Source: a virus (lineage: Duplodnaviria > Caudoviricetes). Taken from it: a stretch of DNA of 61,089 bases. A program made the position numbers and the translations under genes. The DNA lies in the IMG/VR virus record IMGVR_UViG_3300025108_000045, positions 1-61,089 of that record. One strand, written 5' to 3'. Of this stretch, positions 29,530 through 60,762 are shown in pieces; position 1 is the stretch's first letter; every line of letters begins with the position of its first letter. Under the pieces are notes generated by a model. That model had not been told where the DNA came from. It saw nothing but the letters and a program-made list of their open reading frames with translations, and ran no database searches.

Positions 29530-30687
29530 TCACTGCAAGTCACGGATGGAACCGCTCGCGCCAAAGAAAGAGCACCACATTTCGCCCATCGTTCGGTAAA
29601 GTCCTTCTTGACCGAGACGGTTGATTGCGAATGGGTCGCCTGTTTCGATACCGCTTTCAAAGTATTGAGTCGGGATTGCTGTTTGGAACCACATGTAATC
29701 AGTGTCAAGGTAGTACATTCTTGAGAGAGTACCAGCGCCATCAGTAGGCATATCCTTGGTTGGAATCATTGGAACACCGTTGTAAGTAGCAACAATAAAT
29801 CCTGCTTCCATACCCGGAACACCCTTCACACCGTTGTATGTAGGAGTAACGCGCTTGCTGTCCATAAATCGCTGTTGCGATTGGAGCAATTGTTGAACGC
29901 GCATCAAAGTGTCGTAGCCAGTAAGCATGACCTTTGGATTTCCACCACGGGTCCAAAGTTGTTGGAACAATCCGTCAAGTTGGTTGAGGGATAGATTGCG
30001 GTTGGTTGCGGCGGTTGAATTATCGCCTCCAACATCAACCTCAGCGGAATGCCAAGCCTCGCTACCGTCGCGAGTGATGGAGTAAATGTCGTGGTCGCTC
30101 ATAGCGCTCACCGAAGTCTGCGTGACACTCTGCACAGCAGGGTCGGATGTAAGACGGTCGAGAGATTCGAGGTTGTTACCAGCAGGAGTGTCAACATCAA
30201 CAAGAAGCATCTTGTTAATCATTTCAGCGTGATGCTTACCCATCTCTTCCTTGAGGACTTGACGAGCATCGCCAAGACCATCGTCCTTGTCGGACAAGAA
30301 CATTGCAACTTCCGATAGGTCGAAGGTGTGAGCAATCGTCTTTGGCTTGGTCGAAATGTTCTCGAATGTTGGCTTCTTGGTGTCCGGTAGTGTTCCGTTC
30401 TCGGCGATACCACCAGTCACGCCACTTTCAGCGCGAGCGGTAAGAATACGCCATCCACTGCGCTCCCATGGCTTCTTAGGAAGAATCGAGAAGGCGTTGA
30501 ACTCTTGGTTCAATTGTGACCAAACCTTTCGTCCGTAAATTGCTTGGTAAGTTCCTGCGGTGGTGGACAACAAAGGCGCGTCTGCCTTGAGAATGTCACC
30601 TGCTCCGTAGGTGTAGCCGGTTTGAGAAGCGCCACCGTAGTAGTATCGCTCCATGTCTTGAACTGTTCGTACATAATTTCTTGCCAT
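29530..30687 (-). CDS. Major capsid protein, HK97 fold (385 aa)
   Basis: Follows the protease (TGATG overlap); segments AFSILPKKPW, KPKTIAH, YNGVPMIP, YYLDTDY, LYRTMGEM resemble halovirus/magrovirus-type capsid proteins. Confidence 0.9.
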   Translation of the reverse strand: MARNYVRTVQDMERYYYGGASQTGYTYGAGDILKADAPLLSTTAGTYQAIYGRKVWSQLNQEFNAFSILPKKPWERSGWRILTARAESGVTGGIAENGTLPDTKKPTFENISTKPKTIAHTFDLSEVAMFLSDKDDGLGDARQVLKEEMGKHHAEMINKMLLVDVDTPAGNNLESLDRLTSDPAVQSVTQTSVSAMSDHDIYSITRDGSEAWHSAEVDVGGDNSTAATNRNLSLNQLDGLFQQLWTRGGNPKVMLTGYDTLMRVQQLLQSQQRFMDSKRVTPTYNGVKGVPGMEAGFIVATYNGVPMIPTKDMPTDGAGTLSRMYYLDTDYMWFQTAIPTQYFESGIETGDPFAINRLGQEGLYRTMGEMWCSFFGASGSIRDLQ

Positions 30688-32084
30688 CAGTAATCGCCTC
30701 CTGTCAACGCTTTGCTGGCAAGTCGGTGAACATCGTTCCACGACAAATCGGCCATCTCAGCGGTGTTAGGAATGGTAACGGTTGCGGTGCTTGCTGACTT
30801 TGCAATCATCGAGCCGCCGGTTGAGGAAACATTGTCGATGCGCTCATTGAGAGCAAGGACAGCCTTTTGCAATTCAACCAAAGGTGCGCGGGAATCAAAT
30901 TGAGACTTCGCGATTGCGTCAGCCTCAGCCTTTTGTTCCTTAAGGAATCGGTCTGTAAAGTGACTGTTCAAGTCAGCCTTGAAGTTCTGCTCAGTAGCCG
31001 CGGCCTTGAAGACCTCGTAAGCAGATTCGATTTCGGATTGGGAAACATTGCCGGGAGCAAGGTACTGGCTCTTGATAACAGTCTTGTTGCCGGTTGGTGC
31101 GGAACCAAAGTTCTGCTGTGGTCGCTTGCCGGAGTCGTCTTCGCCAGCGCCCTCAAGAGAACCTTGTCCTCGCATGTCAAAAGACGATTCGCCCGGTCCG
31201 TATCCCTTGTTGAAGTGGTCGCGTGCGGCGCGTGCATCGTAGCCTGCGCTCTTCACGGTGGACTCAAGCCAAACCAAGTAGTCACTCGTAATCATATCAT
31301 TTCCTTTGCTCATTTTTTCATCATCCTCTTTGTCTTTCTCGTCATCATCGGAGTATGCCATGCTTTCTTCCTCTTCGTCGTCTTCGTCGTCTTCGTCGTC
31401 GTCTCCGAACATAGGCGGCTTTGGCTTGTCTTTTTTAGGCTTCATCAAATCTTCGATGCCCTTGTTCTTTTCTTCCTTGTCTTCTTCCTTATCGTCTAAT
31501 TTCTTAGAAAGACGCTCAAGGACGCTTTGCAGTTCTGTCATCGTATTGGTCATATTCTCACCTGTATCCTCCTTAAGAATACGAAATTGCGCTTCGGGGT
31601 TAATACCCTTCTCGCAAATCGTCACTTCGTGGAGTTCCATGCGCCGAATTTCGCGGTAGTCACCGCGGGTTTGGTCGCTCTTGTTGACGCGCTCAAATGC
31701 TTGACCACCGATAGAGAACGAGCGCAGGTTCCCTTTGCGGATTTCGGAAGCCACTTCGCGTGCCTTCTCAATGTCACCACGGAGTTTGATAACAACAAAC
31801 ATGCCCGTGTCATCCACTTCCGACTTCCATAGTCGTCCGTTGGAATCAGTGTAGGAAGGAATGACCGTTCCTACTTGAATGTTAGAGTGTGCGAGTTGCA
31901 CATTGCGGAACCCTTCTGCTTTCATGAAGCCTCCGAAGGCATCTTTTAGGGCGGCGCGAGTGATTAAATCACCCTGCTTGTCAACCATTTCAACAGATGC
32001 ATAGCCTGCAACAACCAAGTCGTCCCCCATACCCTTCAAGATGATGGGTTCGGAAACCGAGGATGGAGCCGCAAGGATAGCCAT
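30687..32084 (-). CDS. Prohead protease fused to an acidic scaffold domain (465 aa)
   Basis: VAGYASVEMVDKQGD, catalytic-like His (QLAHS) and Ser (RSFSIGG), ELHEVTIC...INPEA; acidic helical C-terminal half. Likely start MAILAA. Confidence 0.9.
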   Translation of the reverse strand: MAILAAPSSVSEPIILKGMGDDLVVAGYASVEMVDKQGDLITRAALKDAFGGFMKAEGFRNVQLAHSNIQVGTVIPSYTDSNGRLWKSEVDDTGMFVVIKLRGDIEKAREVASEIRKGNLRSFSIGGQAFERVNKSDQTRGDYREIRRMELHEVTICEKGINPEAQFRILKEDTGENMTNTMTELQSVLERLSKKLDDKEEDKEEKNKGIEDLMKPKKDKPKPPMFGDDDEDDEDDEEEESMAYSDDDEKDKEDDEKMSKGNDMITSDYLVWLESTVKSAGYDARAARDHFNKGYGPGESSFDMRGQGSLEGAGEDDSGKRPQQNFGSAPTGNKTVIKSQYLAPGNVSQSEIESAYEVFKAAATEQNFKADLNSHFTDRFLKEQKAEADAIAKSQFDSRAPLVELQKAVLALNERIDNVSSTGGSMIAKSASTATVTIPNTAEMADLSWNDVHRLASKALTGGDY

Positions 32085-32108
32085 TGACTTCGCGATTTTC
32101 ATTCATGG

Positions 32109-32116
32109 TATATGAA
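32109..32116 (-). promoter_or_regulatory. Putative TATA box (TTCATATA) for the protease-capsid operon
   Basis: Begins 32 nt upstream of an ATG with no SD. Confidence 0.5.
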
Positions 32117-32123
32117 TGGAACC

Positions 32124-35100
32124 CTACCTTAGAGCGATGACACCATCATCTTCAAGAACTGCTTCTTCACCCTCACTGCTTAGCAGTCTCTTGGTTTTCT
32201 TTGAAGTAGCAGGCTTCTCGTCACTTTCTTCGCGAGCCGCAGGGTCGAAGTCGGGGAGCGTATTGTCATTGATGTTTTGAGTAGGCCCGCGCGGGTGTTC
32301 ATCGGGTGTTGCATAACCAATACCCAATCCTTGCACACCTGTGCTGGTGATTTTTTCTTTGGACAAATGTTCTAATCCGCGCTCCATCAATTCAAGTCCA
32401 CGCTTGATAATCTCTTCTTCCTCGTCAAGAACCTTTTTTGGTTTCTTCACATGTCCAGCAGGTTTTTCGGGATTCACTTCATCGTATTCGGGTTCACCCT
32501 CTTCTTCCTTGAGTAAAAGAGCGGCTTGATACTCCCAATACACCTGTTGGTCTTCGGCTAAACGAACGAGATATTCGTTACCCCATGTAGTGGTTTGAGG
32601 TTCAACAAACCAAAGACCTTCTTCTTCGCGCGTTTTACAAATAACATCATCGTCAAAAGCAGGGAAGTTGATTATGATTTTACCTTTCTTGAGCGCTACG
32701 CGCTGAGCGACATGTTGCTCACCTGTGAGAATTGTAAGGGTTTCAACGCTGTCGGATGCGAGAGGTTCGTTGTCCGTAATCTTCGCGGCGCGTATGCGAT
32801 AAACAGGGTGTTCTCCTTTCGACGCACTCACTCCTGTGCAACGAACTGTTGCAAAATCCCCCGCCTTCAAACCACGCGGTCCTTTCGCGTTACCTACCAT
32901 CATGTAATGCTCACCTTCGTACTCCTGCGCGCGCTTACCATAATGTTCGGGATGCATGAGGGGTCCTACTCCAACAGTGTAATTCTTGCCGGTGCGTGAA
33001 AGTATGATAACATCAACCATCTTTTCTTTGCTAAGCAACACCCATTTAGGATGACGAGGTTCACCCTTCATGTAAGTCGCGTTCGCATCGCGGAGAAGAA
33101 TGTCAATGTTCTGCTCACCTCGCAGTCCTTCAATAGCGGTCTGCAATCCTTCCTCATCGCTACGCTTGGTGTTGATAGGTTCGGGCATCTTGATGTGTTC
33201 ACTGGATTCGTATTGAGCGCGAAGATGACGGATGCGGTCCTTAGCAGGCATGTTGTGAGTATCTTCATCCGCCGTCTTTAGCAAATCAATGACTGTCATG
33301 ATGCCGTCATGAAGAATCGCGTGGACTACAAAGTCCTTCTCATACACTTTGTCTTTTTCTTGCACAATTGCTTCATCCAGTTCAACTTCACCGTTAGCAC
33401 CGTATGCAGTCATCTTCTTTCCTTTTTTTGTCACGATGACATGTTCTCCTTGAGGATAAAGCGTGATGACCCAATCGCCTGTAAATCCGCGCAAATGTTG
33501 CATGTCTTCTAAACTGAAAATACGATGCATGAATTTGACCGGAGGTGGACGACCTTCGTCTTTGAAAATGAGTGAGTCGTCTATGAGAACATCGGAAGAA
33601 GCCAGTTTGGGGTCCGTGAGGTCATTCGCGCTTGCCGCTTGATTTTGAAAAGTGGTCTGTTGCCCCATGGAATTGTCCATACCGTATGTGTGAGGTTGAA
33701 GGAGTGGATTAACATCAAGCAACGCGTCTCGCGATACTGGCAGTTGCACGCGCTGATTGTTCGGTGAGCAATTGGGTGAAACCTCATTTGATTGAAAAAT
33801 GAAGTTACCTTGACGAAGCGAGTCTTTGTTGATGGTGTGTGGTACATGCACGGAACGACCGTGGCTCTTCATGTATTCTCTGCTCGTCAGTACAGGCACA
33901 AGTTTAGCGTTATCGAAAGAATCCCCGCCAAAATTCAATTGAGTTTTTGGTTTGAGAACGCTCATACCACCCCTCTCCACAGTATCATCACCAAGAGCGT
34001 GAGCCAACAATCGCATCTTATTGTAGCGCGTGGTTAAGTCCTTTTTACTACCTTGCGGGAAAACTTTCTTCTCCATAGGACCCGTGGTCATTCGGACACC
34101 GTGTCCCAAAATGTCTCTGTTGCTACCACCCGCGGTATGCTCAAACATGTGATTCATCACCTCAGTGATGGCGTTGAACTCATCATTCATCGACATTGTG
34201 TCTCCGTTGTATGACACTGAGTTCCCGCCATGTAAGAAATTTTCATCATCATCTTCTTCTCTAAATGCATTGTGTAAACCACCTTGGGCGTGAAGAATCA
34301 TCTTGCGACCCGTACCGGATAGCAACAACCTATGCGCGTCTTTAGGATTCTTGATTAAATCAAGGTGGCTATCAACATACCTACGCCCCTTTCGCCCCTT
34401 ATTCGTCACTGCCGAAGGTGCTTCCTTCGCGACTGGTTTTTCAAGACGGTTGTGAGTGTAATAGCGCGCCATGAAAGCATCCTCGAAAGAGATGTTTTGC
34501 TTCTTCGCGGCTTCGCTGATTTCTTTAATAACATCGTTAAAGACGCTCAGTGATGCTTTGTCTGTCCCGTGCTTAGCGTAAACATGAGATGCTACTTCAT
34601 GCCCTTTGACATGTTCGGGGAAGAAGTCCGAGAGATTGCGATACTCCCCTCGCTTACCATAAGTTGGTCTTTCAACCTTCAATTGGTTGATACGCTTCAA
34701 TGTCTCTTTGTCAATGTATTGACTCATGCTACCGAAACTACCGGCTCCATGCGCCGTGATACCGTGAGTCGGAGGCTTATCTTCTTGTTCGTTTGAATAG
34801 CACAACTTTTCACGCTGTGTTGGTGTAAGATTTATCGCGATGTATTCAGCGATATGCATTCCATAAGCAGTTGCATTCCACGCGTCGTTGTTGTCCTTGT
34901 CACTCATACCTTCTTTACCGAAGATGCCGGGGAAGTGATGCTCATAGGCTGGCTTGACAATGCTGTTAAAAATTTCTTTGGTCACATCATGCGTCTGTCG
35001 CGCTATCTGTGAATGGTCTTGGATTGGCTTCGTCGCGTCTCCTTCGCTGATGTGAGGTTGTAAATCATTGATTTTACCGTAAAGCAAGTCGCGTTTTGCA

Positions 35101-37964
35101 TCATCATTCTCGTATGCAATTTGATGAACGAGTTCACTTTTGTGCGCTAAAGCGAGAGTGGATGTGTCGGGGGCTATCACATATTCTTGACCGTGTTGGT
35201 CAAATCCAAAAGGCGTGACATTTCCTTCTTCGTTTAGATAATCTTTCAATCGCTTGTCCAATTTTGACGCTTTAGAGGTCTTCGGCTTGATTCCCTCGTT
35301 AGCCATGATTTCTCGCTTGACTTGTTTGGTAGTAAGAGCACCATGAACGAGAGATTCGGGTGCGTAAAATTCACCTCTCTTTATCGCGTCAATGTATTTT
35401 TGATATTCTTCAACTGTGTAAAACGAAGAAGTTTGAGTCCCTTGGGTATCGACTGCGCCAGCCAACTCACGATGAATTTGGTGAGCGCTTCGTCCTTGAT
35501 TTGTCGGGTCGCTTCGTCGCGAAGAACGATAAACACCGCTCTTCCATTGGGACAATGATTCATCGTCTCGCAAATCAATTGGTTCGTGGAAGCCAAAAAG
35601 ACCTATGGGGATTTTGAGTGTGTGTTCGGGCTTGGTCTTATCATAATCAAGACGCTTAATTTTATCGCCTCTCAAGTGTTCACTGTCAAATAATTTTTCA
35701 TGCCCCTTATTGTGTGCATTAGCGCGCAACAGTTGAATTTCGGACAATGGGTGATTTGATACTAAATCATGCGATTGATGCAAGCCATCCATCCCTAAAA
35801 TGTGTGTTATGTCGAGGGGGTCGGCCATGTAATGCGATTCCGCTCCGATGAACGGTGCGAGCGTGTCACTTGATGGTACGCGCGGACGAGGCATGTCTTT
35901 AGTGAAGGCTTCCATATCCCTGTCGGGGACCAGCGCGCGACTTGCCGCGGCTGGATTCTTAACATCTTGCATGTCAACAAACACTTCTTTGTTGTTCTTG
36001 AACTCGGATTCCATCTCAAGAACCTCACCTTCAGTGTACCCGTTCTTCTTTGCAATTGATTTTAACCGAGCGAGATTCTGTTCATCAAGGGCTTCATCGC
36101 CAACCATTTTGAATGAGTCGCGCAACTTTTCCTTTTTGCGACCCTTCTTTGGTCCTTCTTGAGTCCCTTCTTTCCTATCGGGGAAGTCTTGGCGGAAGGA
36201 GGGGACGATGAGACGCTCCTGTTCACCCTCTTGACCTCTCAAAGTATCAAACCAAACACCCGGCATTGCCTTATCGCGCAAGTATCCAAAATCATCAAAT
36301 TCTTCGTTTTGATTTCCGTGAGCGCCCATGGATTCTGTCATTATCCCTAACACAGTCTCTTCATCCTTCGCGTCCTTCGGGTCACTCCAATCTTCGGGAT
36401 AATTGCGAGTGTAATGAAGGTCATTCATAGACTCCATCATCAAATCCATCTTACCTTGAATCGCCACGGCTTCACCTGCTTTTTGAGCAAAGTCGTTGAG
36501 AAGTTCTTCACCAGCACTGCCGTTGAAAAATCCATCATCGAGCAGTGTTTTGAAATCGGGTATTTCGTCAGTCATTTCAATATATTCTGTACCAAAAAGT
36601 TCGTCAACGATACGATGAGGGTAAGCACCTTGGCCCGTTATATCCAAACCTTGCTCCGCCGCGTACTCATTAACCAGTTCGGAGAAATCTAAACTTTGTA
36701 GCAAACTATCTTGGAAGCCTTCAATGTCTTTCAAGCGCCGACCTTTCTTGATATTGTCAGCCATTTGGCTTGCGTACTCTTTTGGGGATTGCTCAAGTTT
36801 TCGTCTTAGGTCACTGTCCATCCTGTAACGATTAGGAGCCATGTGAGAACTACCCGTTTTCAATGCTCCACCAGCATAAGAATGGCGCAATGCAGTGTTG
36901 AAGACGCGACCGTGAAGCGCCATGTAAGAGCCGACCTCAGTGTTGCCGTTTGTTATGCGATTCAGTTCTTTTTGGCTTTTAGCCCCTGTCAACTTCCAAT
37001 GAGTAATGTCGCGTATCATATCATTCGGTAGCATGTAAACGCCATCGCGGTATGCGTCAATTCCAATGCGTTCGCGTGAAGGGTACACCCAACGCCCATC
37101 TTCGGTTTTGATAGCCTTGTTTTCTGCTACAACTTTACTCAAAATTTTACCAGCATCGTTCTTAGGTTTCCCGCTCTCATCGAACCCCTGTCTCATGATA
37201 TAATCGCGAGGTAACCCTTCATTCTCCCACTGTTTGGCCCAAACGAAAAACTCTTTCAAATGATTTTTCTGTTGAGGAAATTTGTTTTCATAATCCTTTT
37301 TGAAATCTTGAAAACCTATGTCAAACATCTTCTCAATGTTGAAATTGTTGCCGCTCCAAGCGCCAAGCAGGTTGTCTTTCTTCAAAGTAGGATGCAACTT
37401 CTTCGCGGCCTTTATCATCGCCTTGTTGAAATCGCTTGCTCTTCCGCGCGAAAACATCTTCCTCATCAATTGATGAAGGATTGGTATGCTTTCATAAGAC
37501 ACATCGTTGCCATAATTTGGAAACAAACCCATAGCGTGAATTGGATGGTGTGGTGTGTCAATAATTTCATGGTGTTCGTTATTCGGACGCGTTTCGTGCC
37601 TCCACGCTGTTGCATCGCGGACCATCTCATCTATGGCGTTCAAATTGCCTTCTTCAATCGCCTTCTCCAATTGCTCCTTTGTGAACAAACGAACGGCTGT
37701 ATGTTGAGGATGAGGGGCAGGTTCATGACTTGTGGAGCGCGCTCGAATGGTTTTTGACTCTTCAAAGGCTGTTGGTTTAATCATCGTTGCGAGATACTCG
37801 TTTGCTTCTTTACGAAGTGGAGCATAGGTGATGCCGTGGTTGAATAGGTTCTGTGCGCTAAAGAGAACATCCGCCGCTTCGTTGCGAGCGTCAGCGCCTT
37901 TGACTAAAGCATCATAAAAGTCGTTGATGACTCTCGCGTGATATTGTGAAGCGTTTTCCCGCAC
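32124..37964 (-). CDS. 1946-aa head-associated protein with a C-terminal degenerate ATP-dependent DNA ligase-like domain
   Basis: GTG start after GAGGTGA. Region 32508-33560 follows ligase motif order (WVITLYPQGEH, FVVHAIL, IDLL, DILLRD...YMKG...KWVLL, then an OB fold). Confidence 0.75.
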   Translation of the reverse strand: MRENASQYHARVINDFYDALVKGADARNEAADVLFSAQNLFNHGITYAPLRKEANEYLATMIKPTAFEESKTIRARSTSHEPAPHPQHTAVRLFTKEQLEKAIEEGNLNAIDEMVRDATAWRHETRPNNEHHEIIDTPHHPIHAMGLFPNYGNDVSYESIPILHQLMRKMFSRGRASDFNKAMIKAAKKLHPTLKKDNLLGAWSGNNFNIEKMFDIGFQDFKKDYENKFPQQKNHLKEFFVWAKQWENEGLPRDYIMRQGFDESGKPKNDAGKILSKVVAENKAIKTEDGRWVYPSRERIGIDAYRDGVYMLPNDMIRDITHWKLTGAKSQKELNRITNGNTEVGSYMALHGRVFNTALRHSYAGGALKTGSSHMAPNRYRMDSDLRRKLEQSPKEYASQMADNIKKGRRLKDIEGFQDSLLQSLDFSELVNEYAAEQGLDITGQGAYPHRIVDELFGTEYIEMTDEIPDFKTLLDDGFFNGSAGEELLNDFAQKAGEAVAIQGKMDLMMESMNDLHYTRNYPEDWSDPKDAKDEETVLGIMTESMGAHGNQNEEFDDFGYLRDKAMPGVWFDTLRGQEGEQERLIVPSFRQDFPDRKEGTQEGPKKGRKKEKLRDSFKMVGDEALDEQNLARLKSIAKKNGYTEGEVLEMESEFKNNKEVFVDMQDVKNPAAASRALVPDRDMEAFTKDMPRPRVPSSDTLAPFIGAESHYMADPLDITHILGMDGLHQSHDLVSNHPLSEIQLLRANAHNKGHEKLFDSEHLRGDKIKRLDYDKTKPEHTLKIPIGLFGFHEPIDLRDDESLSQWKSGVYRSSRRSDPTNQGRSAHQIHRELAGAVDTQGTQTSSFYTVEEYQKYIDAIKRGEFYAPESLVHGALTTKQVKREIMANEGIKPKTSKASKLDKRLKDYLNEEGNVTPFGFDQHGQEYVIAPDTSTLALAHKSELVHQIAYENDDAKRDLLYGKINDLQPHISEGDATKPIQDHSQIARQTHDVTKEIFNSIVKPAYEHHFPGIFGKEGMSDKDNNDAWNATAYGMHIAEYIAINLTPTQREKLCYSNEQEDKPPTHGITAHGAGSFGSMSQYIDKETLKRINQLKVERPTYGKRGEYRNLSDFFPEHVKGHEVASHVYAKHGTDKASLSVFNDVIKEISEAAKKQNISFEDAFMARYYTHNRLEKPVAKEAPSAVTNKGRKGRRYVDSHLDLIKNPKDAHRLLLSGTGRKMILHAQGGLHNAFREEDDDENFLHGGNSVSYNGDTMSMNDEFNAITEVMNHMFEHTAGGSNRDILGHGVRMTTGPMEKKVFPQGSKKDLTTRYNKMRLLAHALGDDTVERGGMSVLKPKTQLNFGGDSFDNAKLVPVLTSREYMKSHGRSVHVPHTINKDSLRQGNFIFQSNEVSPNCSPNNQRVQLPVSRDALLDVNPLLQPHTYGMDNSMGQQTTFQNQAASANDLTDPKLASSDVLIDDSLIFKDEGRPPPVKFMHRIFSLEDMQHLRGFTGDWVITLYPQGEHVIVTKKGKKMTAYGANGEVELDEAIVQEKDKVYEKDFVVHAILHDGIMTVIDLLKTADEDTHNMPAKDRIRHLRAQYESSEHIKMPEPINTKRSDEEGLQTAIEGLRGEQNIDILLRDANATYMKGEPRHPKWVLLSKEKMVDVIILSRTGKNYTVGVGPLMHPEHYGKRAQEYEGEHYMMVGNAKGPRGLKAGDFATVRCTGVSASKGEHPVYRIRAAKITDNEPLASDSVETLTILTGEQHVAQRVALKKGKIIINFPAFDDDVICKTREEEGLWFVEPQTTTWGNEYLVRLAEDQQVYWEYQAALLLKEEEGEPEYDEVNPEKPAGHVKKPKKVLDEEEEIIKRGLELMERGLEHLSKEKITSTGVQGLGIGYATPDEHPRGPTQNINDNTLPDFDPAAREESDEKPATSKKTKRLLSSEGEEAVLEDDGVIALR

Positions 37965-37973
37965 ACGCTCACC

Positions 37974-38662: not shown

Positions 38663-38664
38663 CT

Positions 38665-39027: not shown

Positions 39028-39035
39028 CTTTAACC
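39028..39035 (-). promoter_or_regulatory. Putative TATA-like box (GGTTAAAG)
   Basis: The TT lies 30 nt upstream of ATG 39003. Confidence 0.45.
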
Positions 39036-40867
39036 TATTGGAAACCGCTTTCTTTTTCTTTCGCGGTAGGGTCAGTCGCCGATTGAATACTGTCAAGCGC
39101 TTGTTCGATTGGAGTCTTCTTCCCGCCTCTTTGATTTTTCTTGGAGGAAGGAGCACCCGATTGGTGTGTTTCGGAACTGATAGGAGCGGGGCCATTATCG
39201 CGTTGTCCTGTCCCTTCACCAAGTCCGATAGCCTTCTCCATCATCATGATTTGCCCCGGTCCTCCGGGCGGAGGCCCTCCACCGCCCGGCGGAAGCCCAC
39301 CTCCGGGCGGCATCATTGGACCCCCACCCTGTGGAGGTATGCCGCCCCCCGGCGGCATAGGTGGAGGCATTCCACCACCCGGCGGCATTCCGCCCGGCGG
39401 CATTCCGCCCGCGCCAGCCTGTTGTTGTTGTGCGGCTTCTTGCGGGTCGGGTTTCTTGTAAGTGAATCGTATGTCGCGTCCAGCATCTTCTGTGAGTTCG
39501 GGTTGGAAACCAAGCCCTTGCATACGCTGTGCGATGTTGACTTCTTGCTCATCGCGACGGAGGCGTGTGATTTCATCTTCTTCTTCGTTCGGATAAAGTG
39601 TCAAACACCAGTCACTAACACCCATTTGCTCAAGCAAACGAGGGAAGAGTTCGCGGGAGTACAATTTTTGTCCCGATTCAACAGCGCGATTGGTGACGAG
39701 TATTTGCATACCCTCGTTGTTTAATCCGCCGGATTTACCAGTATCCATCATGAATACATTGGATACACCGTAAAATGCGGCAATGCGCATTCGTATTTCA
39801 TCGCGGATTTGAGAATACTGCATCTCATCAAGACTGTCCATGAAGCGAACGAACTCAACCTTACCACGACCCGAAGCGGACTCGACGCCAACCTTTGGAA
39901 TGTAGTGAGGGTCACGCTCCATTTTCTCTTCTGCTCCTTTCCAAAAAGCCGCAGTTGATTGAATGTTATCTGTTGTAATCGCAAGAATACCTCGCGGAAT
40001 ACGCCTCTTTTGATATGCGAGGTAAATGTAATTGTCCATCGCAGTGAGGCTCATTGCTTGACGCCACATACTCGCGACCGGAGAACGACCGTACAATTTA
40101 GACGGATTGAATTTAGATGTATGCAACACCTCTCCTTCAAGGTAATACTGTGTTTTACCACTACCTGCGGTGTTGATGTAGTGAATGTCTTGTAGTGGTA
40201 AAGAGCATATTTCACATTTTTTGTGGTCGCCGTTGTGAGAGTAGGTCTTGTCGCGATGCACAGGGCATAGTAAGTATCGACCCCCGCGCTTACCTGCTTT
40301 ATCGGCAACAATACGCATGAATGTAGGGTCACCGCGAATCAACTCCTTGATTCGGAAAAATTCAATTTTACCACTGTCAGCGTCAATGAAGTATTCCTTG
40401 ATGAGAATTAGGAACGCGTCATCAACAATATCCAAATCCCACTCAACCTCTTTCATGACTTCAATGAAAGACTGGTCCATACTGTTGCGTTGTTTCATCA
40501 ACCATCGCGGGTAAAGAATTTGGTCAGCATCGGGGCTGTCAAATTCTTCATTCCCACAAATGCGACATTCTGTCACCGTGTCATGTTGATATTCCTCTTC
40601 GCAGTTCTTACATTTCTTATGGTATTTCTTCTCCCAATAATAACCGCGGCGGAAAATCTCTTGGCACAGTGTGTTGATGGTTGTTCGGAGAATGATGGAT
40701 TCTTGCACAGTCGCGTAAAGCGCAGGTATTGAGACACCTTGGACAAGAACAGGCTCTTGAATACCCGTCTTCCACAAAGGCATCTGCGGTTCGGGGGTCG
40801 AGCGTCGGTTGAAGGGTTTGGTTATTGAAGACAGGAAACGCCCTACTACACCTTGTTTGTCTGCCAT
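39035..40867 (-). CDS. Portal protein (610 aa) with Zn-binding insertions and a Gly/Pro/Met-rich tail
   Basis: DLDIVDDAFL, LYGRSPV, RIPRGIL, IAAFYGVSNVF portal-like motifs; between terminase and protease genes. Confidence 0.9.
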   Translation of the reverse strand: MADKQGVVGRFLSSITKPFNRRSTPEPQMPLWKTGIQEPVLVQGVSIPALYATVQESIILRTTINTLCQEIFRRGYYWEKKYHKKCKNCEEEYQHDTVTECRICGNEEFDSPDADQILYPRWLMKQRNSMDQSFIEVMKEVEWDLDIVDDAFLILIKEYFIDADSGKIEFFRIKELIRGDPTFMRIVADKAGKRGGRYLLCPVHRDKTYSHNGDHKKCEICSLPLQDIHYINTAGSGKTQYYLEGEVLHTSKFNPSKLYGRSPVASMWRQAMSLTAMDNYIYLAYQKRRIPRGILAITTDNIQSTAAFWKGAEEKMERDPHYIPKVGVESASGRGKVEFVRFMDSLDEMQYSQIRDEIRMRIAAFYGVSNVFMMDTGKSGGLNNEGMQILVTNRAVESGQKLYSRELFPRLLEQMGVSDWCLTLYPNEEEDEITRLRRDEQEVNIAQRMQGLGFQPELTEDAGRDIRFTYKKPDPQEAAQQQQAGAGGMPPGGMPPGGGMPPPMPPGGGIPPQGGGPMMPPGGGLPPGGGGPPPGGPGQIMMMEKAIGLGEGTGQRDNGPAPISSETHQSGAPSSKKNQRGGKKTPIEQALDSIQSATDPTAKEKESGFQ

Positions 40868-42267
40868 TAAATCATCTCCACAAGTCGGTCAGCGTCGTCA
40901 AGGAGACGAAGGGTTTCACCGTCCCGACTAAACATCGCACGAACTCCCACCTCATCAATGTTCCACTCTTTCAAGAGTTCCTCGCGCTTATCGGGAACAT
41001 CCTTCCAATTCAACCACTTTACAATGCGATACAACTCATCGCGGCGAGATTTCATAATGTCGGTTTTACGACCGCGCAAATCAAGCAACTCAATCACTGC
41101 ACCAGCCTGTCCCTTCTTCATCCGCAAGTGTTGGGTGATGCCTTTCATCAATTTACGCAAATCTTTCTCACTGTAAAATTGCAGTCGATGTTGAGTCCGT
41201 CGGCTGTTCTTATGAATTTTCAAATCGGTTTGCAGTACGCCACAACCAAGCGCTTTGTGTAAATTCTCACAATGCATCTTACCTCGCTCACCCGTAGCGA
41301 TAAAGCCAGCGCGGGGTTCCATCCTCTTCGTAATAGTGATGTAGCCGTCAGCATCAAGAAAACCAGCGGCATAAGCCCACACATCTTTGAAAATAACTGT
41401 CTCATCGCGCACGATTCCCCAAGATGCACCAATCTTCTCAATATCATACTCAACGCCGTGCATTTTGAGAATCATGCTCAACCGATTAGGAGAAAGATTT
41501 CTCGCTTTCTCAATGCTTGCGCATAATTCGTTTGAAGAAAGCGGCCCGCGCTCTTCAAGAATCAAGTGTGCTTTGGTTAATACGATTGCATCAGTTTTTT
41601 TGATGTTGTCAACAGAATGTAAAGAACTTCTCCATTCCTTCTTTGCATCTTTTTTGAGTTGCTGAGCCTGTTTCCATATTGCTCTTTGCTCATCATTGAA
41701 ATTTCCATCAATGAGCAACAATTTAGTTATGGCATCGTTTGCCTTCTCCCACTGTACGCACGCGCGCCGAAGAGAATACTCTCGCGAACTACCGTGTTTT
41801 CTCAACGCTTGCAAATCTCGTTCATTTATGCCTAAGTTGCGAACAGTATTCTCATGCTTACCAATCCAATCAATTGATTGTAGCGTAGCCTCGACCTCTT
41901 GTTTCTTTGCAATTCGGATAGCGTCGATAGCGTGGTCGATAGCGTCACGCATATCTTTATTTTGACGGCGAGCCATTCTCAAGTCTTTGACTAAATCACC
42001 AGCCCCACGACCAAACATAGATTGGAACCATCCACCGTCGGGAAGTGACTGCTTTAGTTGTTGGTTAATCATCCCTCGCATCTTTTTCTCTTCCTCAGCC
42101 TCTTCGATTTGATTCGGACGCGCAGGTGTAGGGTTAGCGTTCGCTTCCCCTTCCCCTTGAGAAGTGGGTGCGGGAGCGTCTCCGAAGGAGGGACCGCGTA
42201 TGTTTGTTTTAAGAAGCGGGTGATTGCTCAACATGTCTTGGATGGCGGTCAAATCAATTGCACTCAT
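40867..42267 (-). CDS. Helical + winged-helix + LAGLIDADG endonuclease-domain protein (466 aa)
   Basis: AYAAGFLDADGYI motif near residue 300; wHTH-like GPLSSNEL...SPNRLSMILK; GAGGTGA SD; coupled to the portal gene. Confidence 0.8.
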   Translation of the reverse strand: MSAIDLTAIQDMLSNHPLLKTNIRGPSFGDAPAPTSQGEGEANANPTPARPNQIEEAEEEKKMRGMINQQLKQSLPDGGWFQSMFGRGAGDLVKDLRMARRQNKDMRDAIDHAIDAIRIAKKQEVEATLQSIDWIGKHENTVRNLGINERDLQALRKHGSSREYSLRRACVQWEKANDAITKLLLIDGNFNDEQRAIWKQAQQLKKDAKKEWRSSLHSVDNIKKTDAIVLTKAHLILEERGPLSSNELCASIEKARNLSPNRLSMILKMHGVEYDIEKIGASWGIVRDETVIFKDVWAYAAGFLDADGYITITKRMEPRAGFIATGERGKMHCENLHKALGCGVLQTDLKIHKNSRRTQHRLQFYSEKDLRKLMKGITQHLRMKKGQAGAVIELLDLRGRKTDIMKSRRDELYRIVKWLNWKDVPDKREELLKEWNIDEVGVRAMFSRDGETLRLLDDADRLVEMI

Positions 42268-46551: not shown

Positions 46552-48292
46552 TGACTGCACCACCGCAAGACTTCTTGATAGCGCGAACCACATCATGCGT
46601 CGTGTTAAAAGATTTCGCTAAAACCTCCCAATCACCAAGCGACATGGCTATCGCGCGAACATCAATACTTGACATGCCAACTTGTTGACTTAGTTTATTC
46701 ATGTCATAGGAATCCATAGGGTCGTATTTTGTCAACAAAGAGCCGCCTGCTTCGTGTAATTGCACGCGCTCCATGATGGTCGCGATAATACCCATCGGGT
46801 CATCATCGGATAGTTGAATATCATTGGGATTAAAACCGGAAAACCCTGTCGCACCACCAAACCCTGCGTAGGGGTCGCCCTCAAGCGGCTTTTGTGTGTT
46901 CCCATCGGGCAGTGTTGTAATCGGGTCTTGAGGTGGAAGCACATCATTTGCGCCTTCTTGCACAGCACCTGCCGAACCACTGCTTAGATGAGAGGGGAAC
47001 GAGTCGTGAAGATGGTCGTAGTTGTTGTTGACTTTACCTCGCATTTCATGCATACCGTCGGCTTCGCCAAGAGCCTCAAAATCAATCTGTCTTGCCTCTT
47101 GAGATGCAATCTCAATGTAGTTCTGCATGACTGATGGTGGAGGGGCTGAGCGAGATGTGTAAGCCGCGGGTTCTATTCCAAGTTCCTCCGCAGTCTTCAA
47201 CATAGCCATAATTTCAATAGCGGCTTTGTTGCGACCTCTGTCCCCTCCGCGAATCTTTGGAGCAAAATGGCCTCGATGTTTAGCAACTTCGTGTTTAATA
47301 TCGGGATTGTCGAAATCAATAGCCCCTCTCAAATTCGCCATAACGGTCTGCAAACCCGTCGGTGAACCATCTTTACCGCGACCAAAAAGCAACTGGTTGA
47401 TTGGCGCGCGAGCCATGGCTCTTGCAGTAGGTTGGTCAAATCCTTGGTCTTGTAAAGAATTCATCACTTCGGTGGACATACCGCCTGCGGTGCTTGGGGA
47501 GAATAAATCGGGGAGTCGTTGAGACAAGATAGCAACGATAGACATTGGCGATATTTGACCATAAGCGGCAGTCTGCGCATGGTCGTCTGCGTAGTGTGAA
47601 GGAAACACTGTATTGTCTTTAGCGGTAGGGTCCTTTTCATTTGAGTTGTAGCGGCGTGTAACACCACCTGTAATTTGCTGAGGTTCAATCACATTCTGCT
47701 TAGCGCCTAACTGACTGTCAATACCTCGACTTTTAATCTCATCAAGGAACTCTTTGTGAGTGTGAAATGCCGCTGACTCAAGATGAACACCAAGCGTCGG
47801 GTGTGCTTTGTTGTTCGCGTGATTGTTGATGAGTCGCCCTTCTTCGTCACGCGTTTGTCGATTCGCTGTCGGAACACGACGAGATTGATGCGCCCCGTAG
47901 TGGTTATTTTCGTATTCGGGGTGTAAAGAACCATCTTCATCAAACGGAATGGGGACAGTGTGAAAGTCATCATTATTGTCGCGCTTGATTTTGTTGAACC
48001 TCATCGCCGCTTTGTTGAAAATATCTTTCGCTTTTCTCAACGCTTTCTCTTCTGTCGTATGTCCCCCTTTGACTAATTCATTAGCGAGGAAATGCGCGGC
48101 TTGTTCTTTAGGAAATCGAGAGCGAACATCGGGTGGAATTTCATCAAACGGTTTACCAGTTATGGAATTGATGTAAAAGTGCGACATTTTGTCGTGCGGT
48201 GAATGCTTTGGAGGGAAGGACATTGGGTGCATAACACCATCCTTATCCATGTAGTAAACACCCTTCCCCTTGAGGATGATTTCACCTCTCAC
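46544..48292 (-). CDS. Hypothetical putative internal virion protein (582 aa)
   Basis: GTG start overlapping the upstream TGA; begins MRGEIILK; no family recognised. Confidence 0.65.
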   Translation of the reverse strand: MRGEIILKGKGVYYMDKDGVMHPMSFPPKHSPHDKMSHFYINSITGKPFDEIPPDVRSRFPKEQAAHFLANELVKGGHTTEEKALRKAKDIFNKAAMRFNKIKRDNNDDFHTVPIPFDEDGSLHPEYENNHYGAHQSRRVPTANRQTRDEEGRLINNHANNKAHPTLGVHLESAAFHTHKEFLDEIKSRGIDSQLGAKQNVIEPQQITGGVTRRYNSNEKDPTAKDNTVFPSHYADDHAQTAAYGQISPMSIVAILSQRLPDLFSPSTAGGMSTEVMNSLQDQGFDQPTARAMARAPINQLLFGRGKDGSPTGLQTVMANLRGAIDFDNPDIKHEVAKHRGHFAPKIRGGDRGRNKAAIEIMAMLKTAEELGIEPAAYTSRSAPPPSVMQNYIEIASQEARQIDFEALGEADGMHEMRGKVNNNYDHLHDSFPSHLSSGSAGAVQEGANDVLPPQDPITTLPDGNTQKPLEGDPYAGFGGATGFSGFNPNDIQLSDDDPMGIIATIMERVQLHEAGGSLLTKYDPMDSYDMNKLSQQVGMSSIDVRAIAMSLGDWEVLAKSFNTTHDVVRAIKKSCGGAVNG

Positions 48293-50735: not shown

Positions 50736-50736
50736 C

Positions 50737-51333: not shown

Positions 51334-51342
51334 GATACCACC

Positions 51343-52227: not shown

Positions 52228-52231
52228 TTTG

Positions 52232-52954
52232 TCACCAACTGAGCATTTCAATCATCGTTTTTTCGACATTCCAGCCGATTTTAGTCGCCATCATGCTGAC
52301 GCGACATGGAATACCTGCTTTTTGTAGTCTTCGCATGGCCGGACGATGCACATCGAACACTTTATGCTCGCGTAATCGGTTAGATTGCCATAATATGTTC
52401 GCATTTTCATCCCACCACTCGTCTGCTTTGTTCGCGACCAGCCAAATTTGCTTAGGAGTGTACCTTTTTCCTCTAATTCGAGTCTTCAAAGAGCGGTATT
52501 TCCATCTTTTTTCAATTAAAGCATCAACAAGGAACTCAAAACCACCAATCGCGTCAATAACTTTCGCCCCTTGGCCTCCTAAGACGCGCGTATCGGTCAT
52601 GAATACAACAATTTCCACTTGTCTGTCCACCATATCGTCAATCCATAGGTTCCAAAAGCGTTGTTGTCCTCCAATATCGGAAGAATGAACCACTCTCTTC
52701 TCTCCTTTCCAGCGAAGACGCTTTCGCGTAGCCTGCGGAAGAACATATCCTCCGCCAATGAGCCTTTTTGCATGCATGGTGCGCTCTTCAATGTCATCCA
52801 TCTCGCCCGGAGTGCGCATAAATTGGTCGAGAGTCGTCTTTCCGACTTGCGTTGGACCGTAAACACCTATTCTGCGCGGCTTTAGGTAGTTATACAGTTC
52901 ACGACCGTACACAACCGCGCCCATAAGCGCGCTACCAGCCATTGTTGCAACCAT
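52232..52954 (-). CDS. Ras-superfamily small GTPase, Arf/Arl-like (240 aa)
   Basis: G1 GPTQVGKTT, G2 EERT, G3 DIGGQQRFWNLW, strand VVFMTD, G4 NKAD, G5-like MATKIGWNV; N-terminal hydrophobic/amphipathic helix. ATG overlaps the upstream TAA. Confidence 0.9.
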   Translation of the reverse strand: MVATMAGSALMGAVVYGRELYNYLKPRRIGVYGPTQVGKTTLDQFMRTPGEMDDIEERTMHAKRLIGGGYVLPQATRKRLRWKGEKRVVHSSDIGGQQRFWNLWIDDMVDRQVEIVVFMTDTRVLGGQGAKVIDAIGGFEFLVDALIEKRWKYRSLKTRIRGKRYTPKQIWLVANKADEWWDENANILWQSNRLREHKVFDVHRPAMRRLQKAGIPCRVSMMATKIGWNVEKTMIEMLSW

Positions 52955-53190
52955 TATGTCACCCAACCGCGAACTTTATTGTAAACCCACTCAACAGTGT
53001 TCTCCCAAATGCTCACATCAGCATGCAATTCAAAAAAAGACACACTCAAAGCAGTCACAAACCCTGTTATCACGCACAACACCAGCGCCTTTCCCTTTTC
53101 ATAATAAGTGTCAAGCGTGTTTTGAGTGTGCAAAGCGCGAAGTGTTGCCTCGGTAGCATCATCTCCGGGTGTTTTGAACAACCATCCCAT
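52954..53190 (-). CDS. Single-TM membrane protein with a C-terminal amphipathic helix (78 aa)
   Basis: MGWLFK start; TM ALVLCVITGFVTALSVSFF; IWENTVEWVYNKVRGWV. Confidence 0.75.
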   Translation of the reverse strand: MGWLFKTPGDDATEATLRALHTQNTLDTYYEKGKALVLCVITGFVTALSVSFFELHADVSIWENTVEWVYNKVRGWVT

Positions 53191-53194
53191 TGAT

Positions 53195-53707: not shown

Positions 53708-53741
53708 GGGGTTGCCTCCTTGTTGAGCGACAACGCGTGCG

Positions 53742-53750
53742 CTACATAAG
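53742..53750 (-). promoter_or_regulatory. Putative TATA-like box (CTTATGTAG) of the GTPase operon
   Basis: About 42 nt upstream of ATG 53707, followed by an SD-containing leader. Confidence 0.4.
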
Positions 53751-53766
53751 CGTATTCATTCACCCT

Positions 53767-53845
53767 ATTCTCAGTATTATACTATTATTGTTACAATAAT
53801 ACAAACTAATTATTCTTATTAGAACGAAATGAGATTATCGAGAAT
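53767..53845. promoter_or_regulatory. AT-rich spacer with nested inverted repeats
   Basis: TATTATTGT-t-ACAATAATA (53783-53801), AGTAT-t-ATACT (53773-53783), CTAAT..ATTAG (53806-53822), outer ATTCTC..GAGAAT. Confidence 0.7.
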
Positions 53846-53847
53846 CC

Positions 53848-59800: not shown

Positions 59801-60762
59801 GCGCGCTCTTGTAAGAAAATTCTCATGAAGTTGTTCACATCTTCTTGCACCAGTGGTACTGCATCTTTCTCACTGACTCCTTCTTGTTGCGCTTTATTGG
59901 TTATCAAGTTGCGCCATTTTGCTACATCGGATGAAGCAACCTTTGACTCTTCCAAATCCATGGTTTTGAAATCAACTTGCGGCAAGACTTTTTCATAAAG
60001 TTTACGCGCGGCCTCCATTCTCCCTTCATCAGTGGTGTATCTTCCGTCAGCGGTCAATTCACTCAACGCTTTTCGCCCTTGAGCCGACGCCTCATCCATC
60101 TGTTGTTGAAAGTAATCGGGCATAGTGCCGCCACGCGACGGTACAACACGAACAGCACGCGGGGAGACTTGGATGTCTTCCATGTCTCTCAAAGTCGATG
60201 TGCTAATCGGGTGTTTACTCTTGTTTTTCAAGTGGTTCAGCACGCCCTTCTGTTGCTGTTCGCGCTTTCGTCCACTTGCATCAATGCCTTCGCGCATCCA
60301 TTTGCCTATTTGGTTCGGGACGCGATTCTTTTTCATGAAATCTTCAAGCGAACCATGGTCCTCTTCGTCCATTTGTTTGCGGAACCCTAATTCTTCACCG
60401 AAGTGCTTAATCATACCATCAAGAGCAGTCAGTACGGGCTGTGTGAGCATAGGGAGAGCCATGATGCTCGGTGTGGTGATGTTGCCCTCTTCGTCTTTGA
60501 TGGCCTTGTATCGCGCATCATCGTCCAAATCAAACAACTCAGCGAACATGTGATTATTCGCGTAAATTATGTCACTGTAAAGCGCGTCATAGTCAATCTC
60601 ATCATCCTTCATGGGCGGATTTTTCATGAGGTTCTGTAAGTAGGGCCTCAAAGCAACCTGCCCGTCGAAAATGGCACGCTCTTTTTCGTTCATTTGAGCG
60701 TAGTTTTTATTGGTTTTGCGAGGCGCTTCGTCAGCCTTAACGATGCGGATGAAGCGACCCAT
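53848..60762 (-). CDS. Giant charged helical protein (2304 aa) with DnaJ-type Zn-finger motifs; putative internal virion protein
   Basis: Likely start MGRFIRIVK 30 nt after a TATA-like box; CGLCGGSG...CPEC...CAHCHGSG at 56215-56502; Q/P-rich C-terminus. Confidence 0.7.
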   Translation of the reverse strand: MGRFIRIVKADEAPRKTNKNYAQMNEKERAIFDGQVALRPYLQNLMKNPPMKDDEIDYDALYSDIIYANNHMFAELFDLDDDARYKAIKDEEGNITTPSIMALPMLTQPVLTALDGMIKHFGEELGFRKQMDEEDHGSLEDFMKKNRVPNQIGKWMREGIDASGRKREQQQKGVLNHLKNKSKHPISTSTLRDMEDIQVSPRAVRVVPSRGGTMPDYFQQQMDEASAQGRKALSELTADGRYTTDEGRMEAARKLYEKVLPQVDFKTMDLEESKVASSDVAKWRNLITNKAQQEGVSEKDAVPLVQEDVNNFMRIFLQERAIGSAGRGGRFGREAIAGQGPDFVTHAFHRAAKNVGRSITQPNADERYAEPFIKDPNNPTSKKRRLEIADGDIEVEDMTGLHPALQRALSETGIFRTINEAEGVSRQETADLTASGTQIAEKGGEKTVGTQLSDIKLDTPQDQARARRFISSDRQGEQKIKSDYRLKDLENMVLFGDMTNDEYQVHYNQILNDVSGRAYNPTYFSEIPDGSDFPEGHPYRDLSAGEIEEKSRIFMDLLVGSGRHMMQFNNHLEKLGMDRGEVEKLALHADDMDHLHTILHSDDPYAELGRFNDKDKSRYERVLETGLKPGYLNKLNHDLLDLRKTVSEIGIDPIDIAEMGMEYAKSGFSVQGYRNGFMKLLGKFGGDVSKGAVLRTLYAWKRSNDARAKGLARHQEVKEQKQQFREHYQMSPEERVENKIEKEACKACDIKHFANETKEEAQGHHPYRPRGVSPYALSRIYMPELDYRWDDDDSRSRSIPLMGNDDEISLLTIAKYIFADDDDEYIGQMLRRYGLTQRDGSPLQTDDGVIDTKGIDRRGGELKKYLKKQIEKAIVHPSSPHHDRAEAIGHEFGLDMRDRPRGKRGAARRTPHERQALGLIHASAFQNDAQREESRIRNLTAAQFSGVVEAFDILQDIKSGALTTPEGKRINLKSLTKMDRKGNDRSRKERRKFIASMFGEANAAKRAESKARRYNSFLQHIQPSIDEWEDYQKSFKEEYGQRMENGDLSKKSNPEGHAKLKARLKEMRELAKQDILASMNQIKEKKMRLANRGVAGRDYVEVSAKDFHLHGVVSNGMKINIGGQENAVVDIRPPKYDDQNYALKLEVPLTQDVPVANDDDFHEDSGMQITEPNHSNKLISFEMRSAAEKKALNGEIENLPEFLKTIKSRAGSHDKTANRLAKDVDYDNHRTEQAFGAFLKIGHLLAPLLGKKDDQHLRNKLSALTTQLYTSKDGLPIPDVFLADGYGDEHRSFMYRPDEYMTGAIGQSVGTGLTHQQNNRLLYGLTDAETLQALSLKQHGRKLTKKQLTLANDAFHNEDNADWNKELIDDVLGTQEEEIPQEEIPPSGKMREHQVRELLQREAYDTEGKQENWVMNSATGCGLCGGSGKVTMDDAISFIQAHNPALAGANPNGPKMQDYIHKNLRATNHGDFDSHHSDMRGHEFPGVACPECDQEHPDAEGGRCSDGMCAHCHGSGYLDPDQVDEYFGGYVDEETGEVFHGHKHSPHYGEHYDENGLNAMIQQRLDEEGVGKTGRNNFTAKMHRDAVERGLALPLTKLKTIQALNKERYAKKAKIKMTEKDFNESGYYYSNAFSERSKAPEISDAKVNPIDDAMGVISESQEKLKGLRDAHHNNEILKRAEGMAAKAINNGASEEKVNNLLSVIQNHPNIAGSHGQRNHTVQTACAKLHNLMVKDYPKKYNEKGKANKKLFSLDDDKVQSESGMSHESLVYNHGRWLTDAENDEGIFAPNSKAEPHLSLKDLRDMFKHSKPMMDALNRYLHTSNFDEEKAEKTKEIVGQMKKPLVKQKLSEMSNPALSQLYDEFNAPDDVRDQENLEMEDGEIRWDQSLLDKLSAEGISYSSIKDYLSLEKEEGDSPRGGPRKGLDAGHKRAVNQIVKPMYVEFARLSMLKKFLESYDDISHPNFHKKVVDAMKANGNSADTRLSVENFFETVQMRGDLQTFAYNEAARMFGYDDEEDMERSIDLKNTKKDFGGGLTSGLDFKNDVLKNSKVSKSSAQKLPLEIDQLYQDSVAAQSSVTDESKARDEKIVAQMEEMALFRHYPNWMRMQAMTDLMGENGYGNASELRKDLENGEVSAELIEQIEGINAKATMFHPTITFGDYEDLETYDAVAYGEQQFGERLQGPATQRGTVPMSPSSRPIGQQATVGPQGEQMQTQPSGTAPQQGATGSTSDARTRLGSQAQQFAQRYPQAGEGPVQQPLPMTIRQPYDDKAAEPGQAGELPPFAFKPPQLPQNRFRQMPEDD

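Follow-up and report, generated by a model that had tools for sequence, protein, structure and literature searches.

The 61-kb window analysed here, i.e. all 61,089 nucleotides of IMG/VR virus record IMGVR_UViG_3300025108_000045 (a viral contig with a completeness estimate of 58%), is part of a magrovirus-like archaeal tailed virus, and its minus strand carries all of its genes. An initial annotation had proposed that hydrophobic-x-Lys motifs mark domain boundaries across the head-module proteins of this virus and are cut by a Lys-specific prohead protease. We find that the Lys sites conserved in capsid protein, protease and scaffold are real and are best read as the HK97 rule in an archaeal virus: a protease of the HK97 type, fused to the scaffold, probably cuts after Lys at flexible hydrophobic-x-Lys sites in the capsid protein, in itself, in the scaffold and in short N-terminal leaders. 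As a general marker of domain borders the motif is not supported; most of the copies that lie within helices or inside the two giant proteins are unremarkable sequence. The initial observation is partly confirmed in this way and its interpretation partly supported. Below, a slash marks each predicted cut, P1 is the Lys in front of it, P2 and P3 are the two residues ahead of that Lys, and P1' is the residue after the cut.

The protease belongs to the S78/HK97 family (PF04586 at E 1.1e-9 and 39.1 bits, the cut-off being 21) and also matches PHROG families of head maturation proteases. The N-terminal ~170 amino acids of the protein form the protease; an acidic linker comes next, and the C-terminal half is helical and scaffold-like. 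Translation probably starts at the Met at 32084 (residue 7), where most relatives start, and two numberings are in use: that of the full open reading frame (ORF), and one from Met7 in which K23, K177, K299, K344 and K435 become K17, K171, K293, K338 and K429. Alignment with hhalign pairs the protease with HK97 gp4 residues 11-159 (E 1.4e-4, probability 53%), placing AHS of the window with NHK and FSIGG with MSVGF. His66 and Ser124 (from Met7) are invariant in 39 protease sequences; the catalytic residues of HK97 gp4 we take to be His65 and Ser114. Lys177 (RILK171 from Met7) is aligned with AAMK159/S of HK97 gp4.

Conservation was measured in a sample of 162 related loci in which the relatives of 29 proteins were aligned; relatives are called non-redundant after removal of sequences more than 90% alike. 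In alignments of 39-49 sequences, five motif Lys of the protease-scaffold protein stand out from variable surroundings. Lys23 (PIILK/G) is 0.85 conserved (0.97 within 2 columns) in a context of 0.55 among 35 non-redundant relatives, and Lys344 (NKTVIK/S) is 0.91 conserved in a context of 0.52, its site being doubled in two relatives (L045 and L079). Lys177 (FRILK/ED), Lys299 (F-N-K/G) and the pair K435-S436 (MIAK/S), the last amid variable flanks, are invariant in 39 sequences; the site at Lys299, which also occurs as V-N-K/G, V-E-K/G, V-S-K/A and L-E-K/A, was absent from the initial annotation. In an AlphaFold (AF2) model of the protein (mean predicted local distance difference test score, pLDDT, 63) all five sites fall in segments with pLDDT <50 or on the last residue of the protease domain. 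Lys23 belongs to segment 1-20, just ahead of the first strand, and Lys177 is the last strand residue ahead of a low-confidence segment; Lys344 and Lys435 go with the disordered segments 306-341 and 421-433. Conserved Lys in the low-pLDDT segments of this protein comprise 5 of 8 motif Lys as against 1 of 12 others.

The major capsid protein is of the HK97-fold family and related to Druskaviridae capsid proteins (PHROG 24667, E 1e-58; Pfam SU10_MCP), with 33-35% identity to those of HVTV-1, HCTV-1 and HCTV-5 by tblastn and at least 600 relatives in IMG/VR. Its predicted site, GDILK/AD at Lys34, has the form [IL]-L-K/A-D in 68/68 distinct aligned sequences, and K-A-D stays invariant when HVTV-1 (M-S-K/A-D) and HCTV-1 (V-S-K/A-D) are added. 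In the HVTV-1 capsid protein, 7 of the 13 Lys before the K/AD site have a hydrophobic P3 compared with 1 of the 11 after it, a bias that would be expected of a propeptide that gets chopped up. When the capsid protein was aligned with HK97 gp5 (hhalign) to place Lys34 against K103, the probability was 0.3% and the alignment not meaningful, and a search of solved structures with the capsid alignment profile returned nothing below E 0.1. The HVTV-1 capsid gene (L082 8803-10176) encodes two K/AD sites, LRK/AD and MSK/AD, in an extension that is Lys-rich for a halophile protein; the start of the window's capsid protein coincides with the first halovirus K/AD site. Magroviruses are described as viruses of marine group II archaea in PMC5434244, and the capsid relatedness of the window fits the magrovirus description given there.

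The initial annotation required that the motif be enriched in head over tail proteins, and such an excess was found. Against counts expected from per-protein shuffles, the core motif [ILVMF][ILVMF]K occurs 64 times rather than 41.0 in the head region (20 proteins, 10,177 amino acids; z 3.7) and 22 times rather than 23.2 in the tail region (18 proteins, 9,661 amino acids). The excess is specific to Lys, as the corresponding motifs with Arg (39 against 35.8 expected) or Glu (36 against 43.1) show none. By protein, the observed and expected counts are 8 and 2.2 for the protease-scaffold, 8 and 2.8 for the 466-aa protein (g40867), 16 and 9.4 for the 2323-aa protein (g53848), 11 and 8.9 for the 1946-aa protein, and 4 and 8.7 for the 5114-aa protein. 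In head proteins 67 of 156 Lys with a hydrophobic P3 are at least 85% conserved, against 73 of 327 other Lys; the tail values are 8/45 and 23/76. Conservation of motif Lys above their local context gave p 0.0007 for head and p 0.34 for tail proteins (Mann-Whitney).

The strings cited in the initial annotation were present in 19 of 20 cases, at the implied places among 40 minus-strand gene products; NAAFGYLEK was absent from these products, no six-frame look-up being made. The sites that proved conserved, and that lie in predicted disorder or at a fold border so far as a model or a variable flank could show this, were GDILK/AD, PIILK/G, FRILK/E, TVIK/S, MIAK/S, SLIFK/D, MRGEIILK/G, MGRFIRIVK/A, IMMMEK/A and the Lys ending IMLSTDYIDDAFEMIRK and ...GWNLLMK. 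The portal site (Lys545) is invariant in the 22 distinct rows shown, the relatives being no more distant than 60% identity, and its flanking Gly/Pro stretch is variable. SPMDISSALLK has 3 non-redundant relatives only. The expectation that sites coincide with predicted domain linkers was borne out for the capsid protein, the protease, the scaffold and the ligase-like module described below, and failed for the copies in helices and inside giant proteins.

HK97 is a closer precedent for these sites than T4 or phiKZ, to which the initial annotation had appealed. Its capsid protein is cut at K103/S104 (PMC10275583), a site that reads F-N-K/S in the HK97 record; the window motif thus follows the specificity already known for the protease family, and the proposal of a Lys-specific prohead protease was sound. 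The two viruses share this family, a site with hydrophobic P3, any P2, Lys at P1 and a small P1', a capsid site in an unstructured stretch ahead of the capsid fold, and a matching site where the protease domain ends; AAMK/S, RFK/S, SIK/S and LTK/S all occur in the C-terminal part of HK97 gp4. They differ in that the scaffold is fused to the protease in the window virus but to the capsid protein in HK97, and in the length of the propeptide (34 as against 103 residues). The host of the window virus is moreover archaeal, more of its proteins appear to bear sites or leaders, and its cuts, like the packaging of the leader-bearing proteins, are predicted from sequence. Closer in genome layout are HVTV-1 and HCTV-1, haloarchaeal siphoviruses of the Druskaviridae, which match the window in gene order (portal, large protein, protease-scaffold fusion, capsid protein), in the capsid K/AD site and in having motif Lys, in the plural, after the protease domain, e.g. 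VVSK/AD. Their capsid proteins, however, have an extra Lys-rich N-terminal extension of ~70 residues, and their large protein is annotated with a zeta-toxin domain where that of the window has a ligase-like fold.

It is plausible that Lys cleavage extends to short N-terminal leaders, and this is where the interest of the analysis mainly lies. The motif occurs within the first 30 residues of 13 of 37 proteins compared with 4.3 expected, a count reached by 0 of 2000 shuffles, and does so in both halves (head 7/20, 2.5 expected; tail 6/17, 1.9 expected). Controls with Arg (4 against 3.9) and Glu (5 against 4.5) gave no excess. Individual leaders are strongly conserved among relatives, e.g. MSDIILK/GKG, MGWLFK/TP and another that ends ..ILK/NTI. 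The MGRFIRIVK/AD leader of the 2323-aa protein is kept as MGRLISIIK/AD in a relative with 21% identity over aligned columns, and is also found in an 80% identical one; these relatives (one close locus, and one distant in 2/5 searchable records) are too few for statistics. The motif Lys is not conserved at K22 of the 1946-aa protein, K17 of g22947 or K28 of g28440, and MSLLTK/M, put forward as an N-terminal site, has a Met after the Lys that is a possible alternative start codon and maybe the real one.

A single leader type recurs within this set. MNP..(A)W..LK, 12-13 residues long, opens four otherwise unrelated small proteins of the neck/tail region, whose similarity stops right after the Lys (blastp E at least 0.86 downstream) and whose leader copies carry synonymous codon differences. 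In the 162 related loci the leader gave 30 rows (three of them weak secondary matches), all on the coding strand and ahead of at least 6 different sequences. At the end of these leaders stands hydrophobic-Leu-Lys, with G, M, E or A as the next residue; this is the same loose form as the predicted capsid and protease sites, and from its sequence the MNP leader looks like a capsid-targeting or pro-peptide tag. One copy opens an unlisted 46-codon ORF (23354-23491, minus strand) that encodes a Cys-rich peptide with many CxxC pairs; similar Cys-rich peptides stand behind the same leader in relatives.

In T4, the gp21 prohead protease cuts (Leu/Ile)-x-Glu sites, and the internal proteins IPI-III and Alt bear capsid-targeting sequences. 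The window resembles T4 in that capsid protein, scaffold and protease all bear copies of a single short motif, and in that unrelated small proteins have short N-terminal leaders, here ending in a Lys motif of similar loose form. A gp21-type (Leu/Ile)-x-Glu system was not found in the window: P1 is Lys here instead of Glu, the protease is of the S78 instead of the S77 type, and the hydrophobic-hydrophobic-Glu motif is without excess, as given above. MNP..AW..LK has no similarity to the T4 leader, and its packaging and removal are predictions. We tentatively raise the possibility of a T4-like cargo system with Lys specificity, in which MNP..AW..LK and other hydrophobic-hydrophobic-Lys leaders would send a changing set of unrelated small proteins, the 46-residue Cys-rich peptide among them, together with the N-termini of larger proteins into the procapsid, where the HK97-type protease would clip the leader off. 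A literature search found neither Lys cut sites nor leaders described for archaeal viruses, and the available parts of PMC4284463, PMC6471424, PMC5434244 and PMC8651126 do not mention cleavage sites.

Conserved candidate sites for a cut inside a giant protein lie around one module of the 1946-aa protein. Pfam and PHROG searches with this protein gave no match, and its residues ~1470-1820 (32500-33560, minus strand) have an ATP-dependent DNA-ligase-like fold (Foldseek E 1.4e-13 to archaeal DNA ligase 4eq5), which occupies residues ~97-442 of a model built on the last 566 residues. The initial annotation had this module bracketed by SLIFK/D and ALLLK/E, and the first bracket stands: Lys1468 (K88 of the model) is at least 90% conserved in 33 sequences, follows a conserved D-x-L-T-D-x-x-L-L-x-K stretch that itself comes after unalignable sequence, and lies in model segment 45-90 (pLDDT <50), the fold beginning at about residue 97. 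The second bracket is looser, as position 1819, at the end of helix 427-442, has Arg in place of Lys in 5 of the 18 sequences shown; a disordered stretch comes next. Beyond it K1854 (K474 of the model, EEIIK/R) and K1869 (L-S-K/E) are at least 90% conserved in the 33 sequences, in a low-confidence helix ~30-50 residues past the end of the fold. K1563, a motif Lys within a strand of the fold, is not conserved. In the alignment of the module, [ST]-G-D-W stands at the place of the ligase nucleotidyl-lysine motif K-x-D-G, and for that reason the ligase-like domain may be inactive.

That the protease splits many packaged polyproteins (the 1946-, 2323-, 422-, 578- and 582-aa proteins and the LAGLIDADG-like one) into separate domains at hydrophobic-x-Lys, as initially proposed, we regard as unlikely. 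The motif excess of the head half and the conserved sites around the ligase-like module would agree with such a general code, as would IMLST..EMIRK and ..GWNLLMK, which end in Lys that are 0.96 and 0.94 conserved, and the 466-aa protein, which with its eight sites has the densest set of conserved motif Lys (mean site conservation 0.92). However, neither giant protein shows preferential conservation of its internal sites: of the 7 hydrophobic-hydrophobic-Lys sites within residues 1-1380 of the 1946-aa protein 6 score 0 to 0.36, and in the distant relative of the 2323-aa protein 5 of 28 motif Lys are conserved against 13 of 73 others. The ..GWNLLMK site lies 5 residues from the C-terminus of a protein encoded just upstream of the terminase, where there is no domain border, and TVIFK/D, said to mark the start of the LAGLIDADG domain, is invariant but sits inside an invariant block and is uninformative. 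Several of the proteins upstream of the terminase are not known as head proteins; nothing in the Pfam and PHROG searches places them in the head. A position matrix trained on the five conserved capsid and protease sites (P7-P3', threshold 6) also does not generalise, as detailed below. The large packaged set of the initial annotation is not borne out on these counts, and its phiKZ precedent applies in part: in phiKZ and SPN3US the prohead protease reportedly processes many head and ejection proteins after Glu, at cuts mapped by mass spectrometry, and the idea of large packaged proteins cut at a short motif by a head protease is shared, whereas here only a single module, in one giant protein, has conserved sites at its borders.

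Two further explanations do without most or all of the cleavage. Composition and secondary structure could produce the pattern if Lys-rich head proteins simply ended amphipathic helices with two hydrophobic residues and a Lys, nothing being cut except perhaps at the capsid site. Many sites do have the helical form F/Y-x-x-hydrophobic-hydrophobic-K (e.g. FNDVIK, FNSIVK and HLDLIK), several cited sites are inside predicted helices, and the tail half used for comparison is dominated by the 5114-aa protein of different make-up; but Arg, which is Lys-like in helices, shows no such excess, the N-terminal excess is likewise specific to Lys, the best-conserved sites are in predicted disordered segments and not in helices, and the motif is doubled in variable linkers of two relatives. 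We consider composition an improbable source of the pattern as a whole. It is less probable still that the conserved hydrophobic-x-Lys islands, like the MNP leader, serve for docking or targeting, for example by binding the capsid interior, the portal or the scaffold, and are recognised but left uncut. Such short islands of conservation within disorder are typical of binding motifs, conservation of the 34 N-terminal capsid residues and of the leader extends past the last three residues, and the C-terminal ..GWNLLMK looks more like a docking tail. Against docking, the sites have the form of the known HK97 cut site (PMC10275583), they bracket the protease domain where HK97 gp4 has AAMK/S, and similarity among the leader-bearing proteins ends exactly after the Lys.

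Several results weigh against Lys cleavage as we read it, or limit its reach. RFLK/E (0.76 conserved) and AIAK/S (0.47), both cited as scaffold sites, are inside predicted helix 349-395, IDFLK/A is 0.28 conserved, and K185 of the 1946-aa protein reaches a moderate 0.64. In the more distant Methanofastidiosa virus vir519 an Asn replaces the capsid Lys (I-Q-N/A-D, L167 3414-4643); in vir519 an 800-aa gene without an annotated protease lies upstream of the capsid gene. The N-terminal 34 residues of the capsid protein are highly conserved and could belong to the mature protein. Three proteins, namely the protease-scaffold, the 466-aa and the 2323-aa protein, supply most of the head excess, and the motif is absent from 40 of 63 conserved Lys islands in variable context. 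The N-terminal excess test was devised after the data had been seen, and neither HVTV-1 (7/18 against 4.6 expected) nor HCTV-1 (6/18 against 4.2) shows a significant N-terminal excess, unlike the window virus. Finally, the position matrix found 2 matches in the other head-region proteins (1.1 expected) and 0 in the tail region (0.8 expected). With matches this near chance an extended common motif is not demonstrated, although the matrix, having been trained on five sites with small pseudocounts, is probably over-fitted and the result is weak evidence in either direction.

The most likely course is that the serine prohead protease, joined to its own scaffold, acts inside the newly assembled procapsid and cuts at hydrophobic-x-Lys, followed by a small or acidic residue, in flexible linkers. 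The 34-residue propeptide would be taken off the capsid protein, the protease would lose its own N-terminal 17-23 residues and be split from the scaffold half, and the scaffold would be chopped into three or four pieces able to leave the head. Short N-terminal leaders would probably be taken off a set of other proteins, and possibly the portal tail would be trimmed and the ligase-like module of the 1946-aa protein freed.

The coordinates of the sites, leaders and genes are collected in Table 1. The 466-aa protein (40867-42267, minus strand) is encoded between a DUF6321 protein and the portal, and its residues 297-401, the region called LAGLIDADG-like in the initial annotation, have a PHROG "HNH endonuclease" match. 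After the tape measure gene and a 390-aa gene comes a single 5114-codon ORF (4190-19534, minus strand), the first 1500 and last 1614 residues of whose product gave no PHROG match. A 244-aa protein (52232-52966, minus strand) has a P-loop-like GPTQVGKTT near its N-terminus and matched no Pfam or PHROG family.

Table 1. Predicted cut sites, N-terminal leaders and principal genes of the window
Feature	Position	Strand	Remarks
Capsid Lys34 (GDILK/AD)	30589..30591	minus	predicted end of 34-residue propeptide
Protease Lys23 (PIILK/G)	32034..32036	minus	predicted end of N-terminal propeptide
Protease Lys177 (FRILK/ED)	31572..31574	minus	predicted cut, protease domain from linker/scaffold
Scaffold Lys299 (F-N-K/G)	31206..31208	minus	conserved site
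Scaffold Lys344 (NKTVIK/S)	31071..31073	minus	predicted scaffold cut site
Scaffold Lys435-Ser436 (MIAK/S)	30798..30800	minus	predicted cut freeing conserved C-terminal 36 residues
Portal Lys545 (IMMMEK/A)	39233..39235	minus	Gly/Pro-rich C-terminal tail
1946-aa protein, Lys1468 (..DDSLIFK/DE)	33561..33563	minus	predicted cut just ahead of ligase-like fold
1946-aa protein, Lys1819 (ALLLK/E) and Lys1854 (EEIIK/R)	32403..32510	minus	C-terminal side of ligase-like fold
Leader (M)xxEIILK/GKG, 582-aa protein	48269..48292	minus	Lys 0.97 conserved, context 0.44, 32 non-redundant relatives
Leader MGWLFK/TP, 89-aa protein	53173..53190	minus	Lys 0.94 conserved, 18 non-redundant relatives; likely start Met of MGW
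20-residue N-terminal stretch ending PLLK/T, 466-aa protein	42208..42267	minus	Lys 0.89 conserved, context 0.37
9-residue N-terminal leader MGRFIRIVK/AD, 2323-aa protein	60736..60762	minus	kept in two relatives
MNP..AW..LK leader copy 1, 124-aa protein	28405..28440	minus	
MNP..AW..LK leader copy 2, 110-aa protein	26449..26484	minus	
MNP..W..LLK leader copy 3, 46-aa Cys-rich peptide	23453..23491 (ORF 23354-23491)	minus	hidden Markov model E 0.0026, six-frame window search
MNP..AW..LK leader copy 4, 198-aa protein	2488..2523	minus	
Large terminase	43453-44853	minus	Pfam/PHROG searches
Portal	39035-40867	minus	Pfam/PHROG searches
1946-aa protein	32124..37964	minus	between portal and protease
Protease-scaffold, 471 aa	30687-32102	minus	Pfam, PHROG, hhalign, AF2 model
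Major capsid protein	29530-30741, true start Met at 30690	minus	PHROG, Pfam, tblastn
Tape measure protein	20642-22354	minus	Pfam/PHROG searches
Collagen-like tail fibre	3-1583	minus	Pfam/PHROG searches

Magroviruses rank with the most abundant archaeal viruses in surface ocean water and, to our knowledge, none has been cultured, so that sequence is the only route to their assembly. From the predicted cuts follow mature ends of capsid protein, protease and scaffold that can be tested; as cuts after Lys resemble the ends that trypsin makes, they escape ordinary trypsin proteomics. For motif scans the results carry a caution, i.e. that the short motif alone over-predicts and that likely sites are told from chance ones by conservation in a disordered context. 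The HK97 rule (hydrophobic-x-Lys, then a small residue) would on this reading reach into archaeal viruses. The Lys-ended leaders further hint at a possible packaged protein set, for an archaeal virus the first system of its kind to be proposed, and if this is true the heads of these abundant ocean viruses would deliver protein cargo into Poseidoniales cells.

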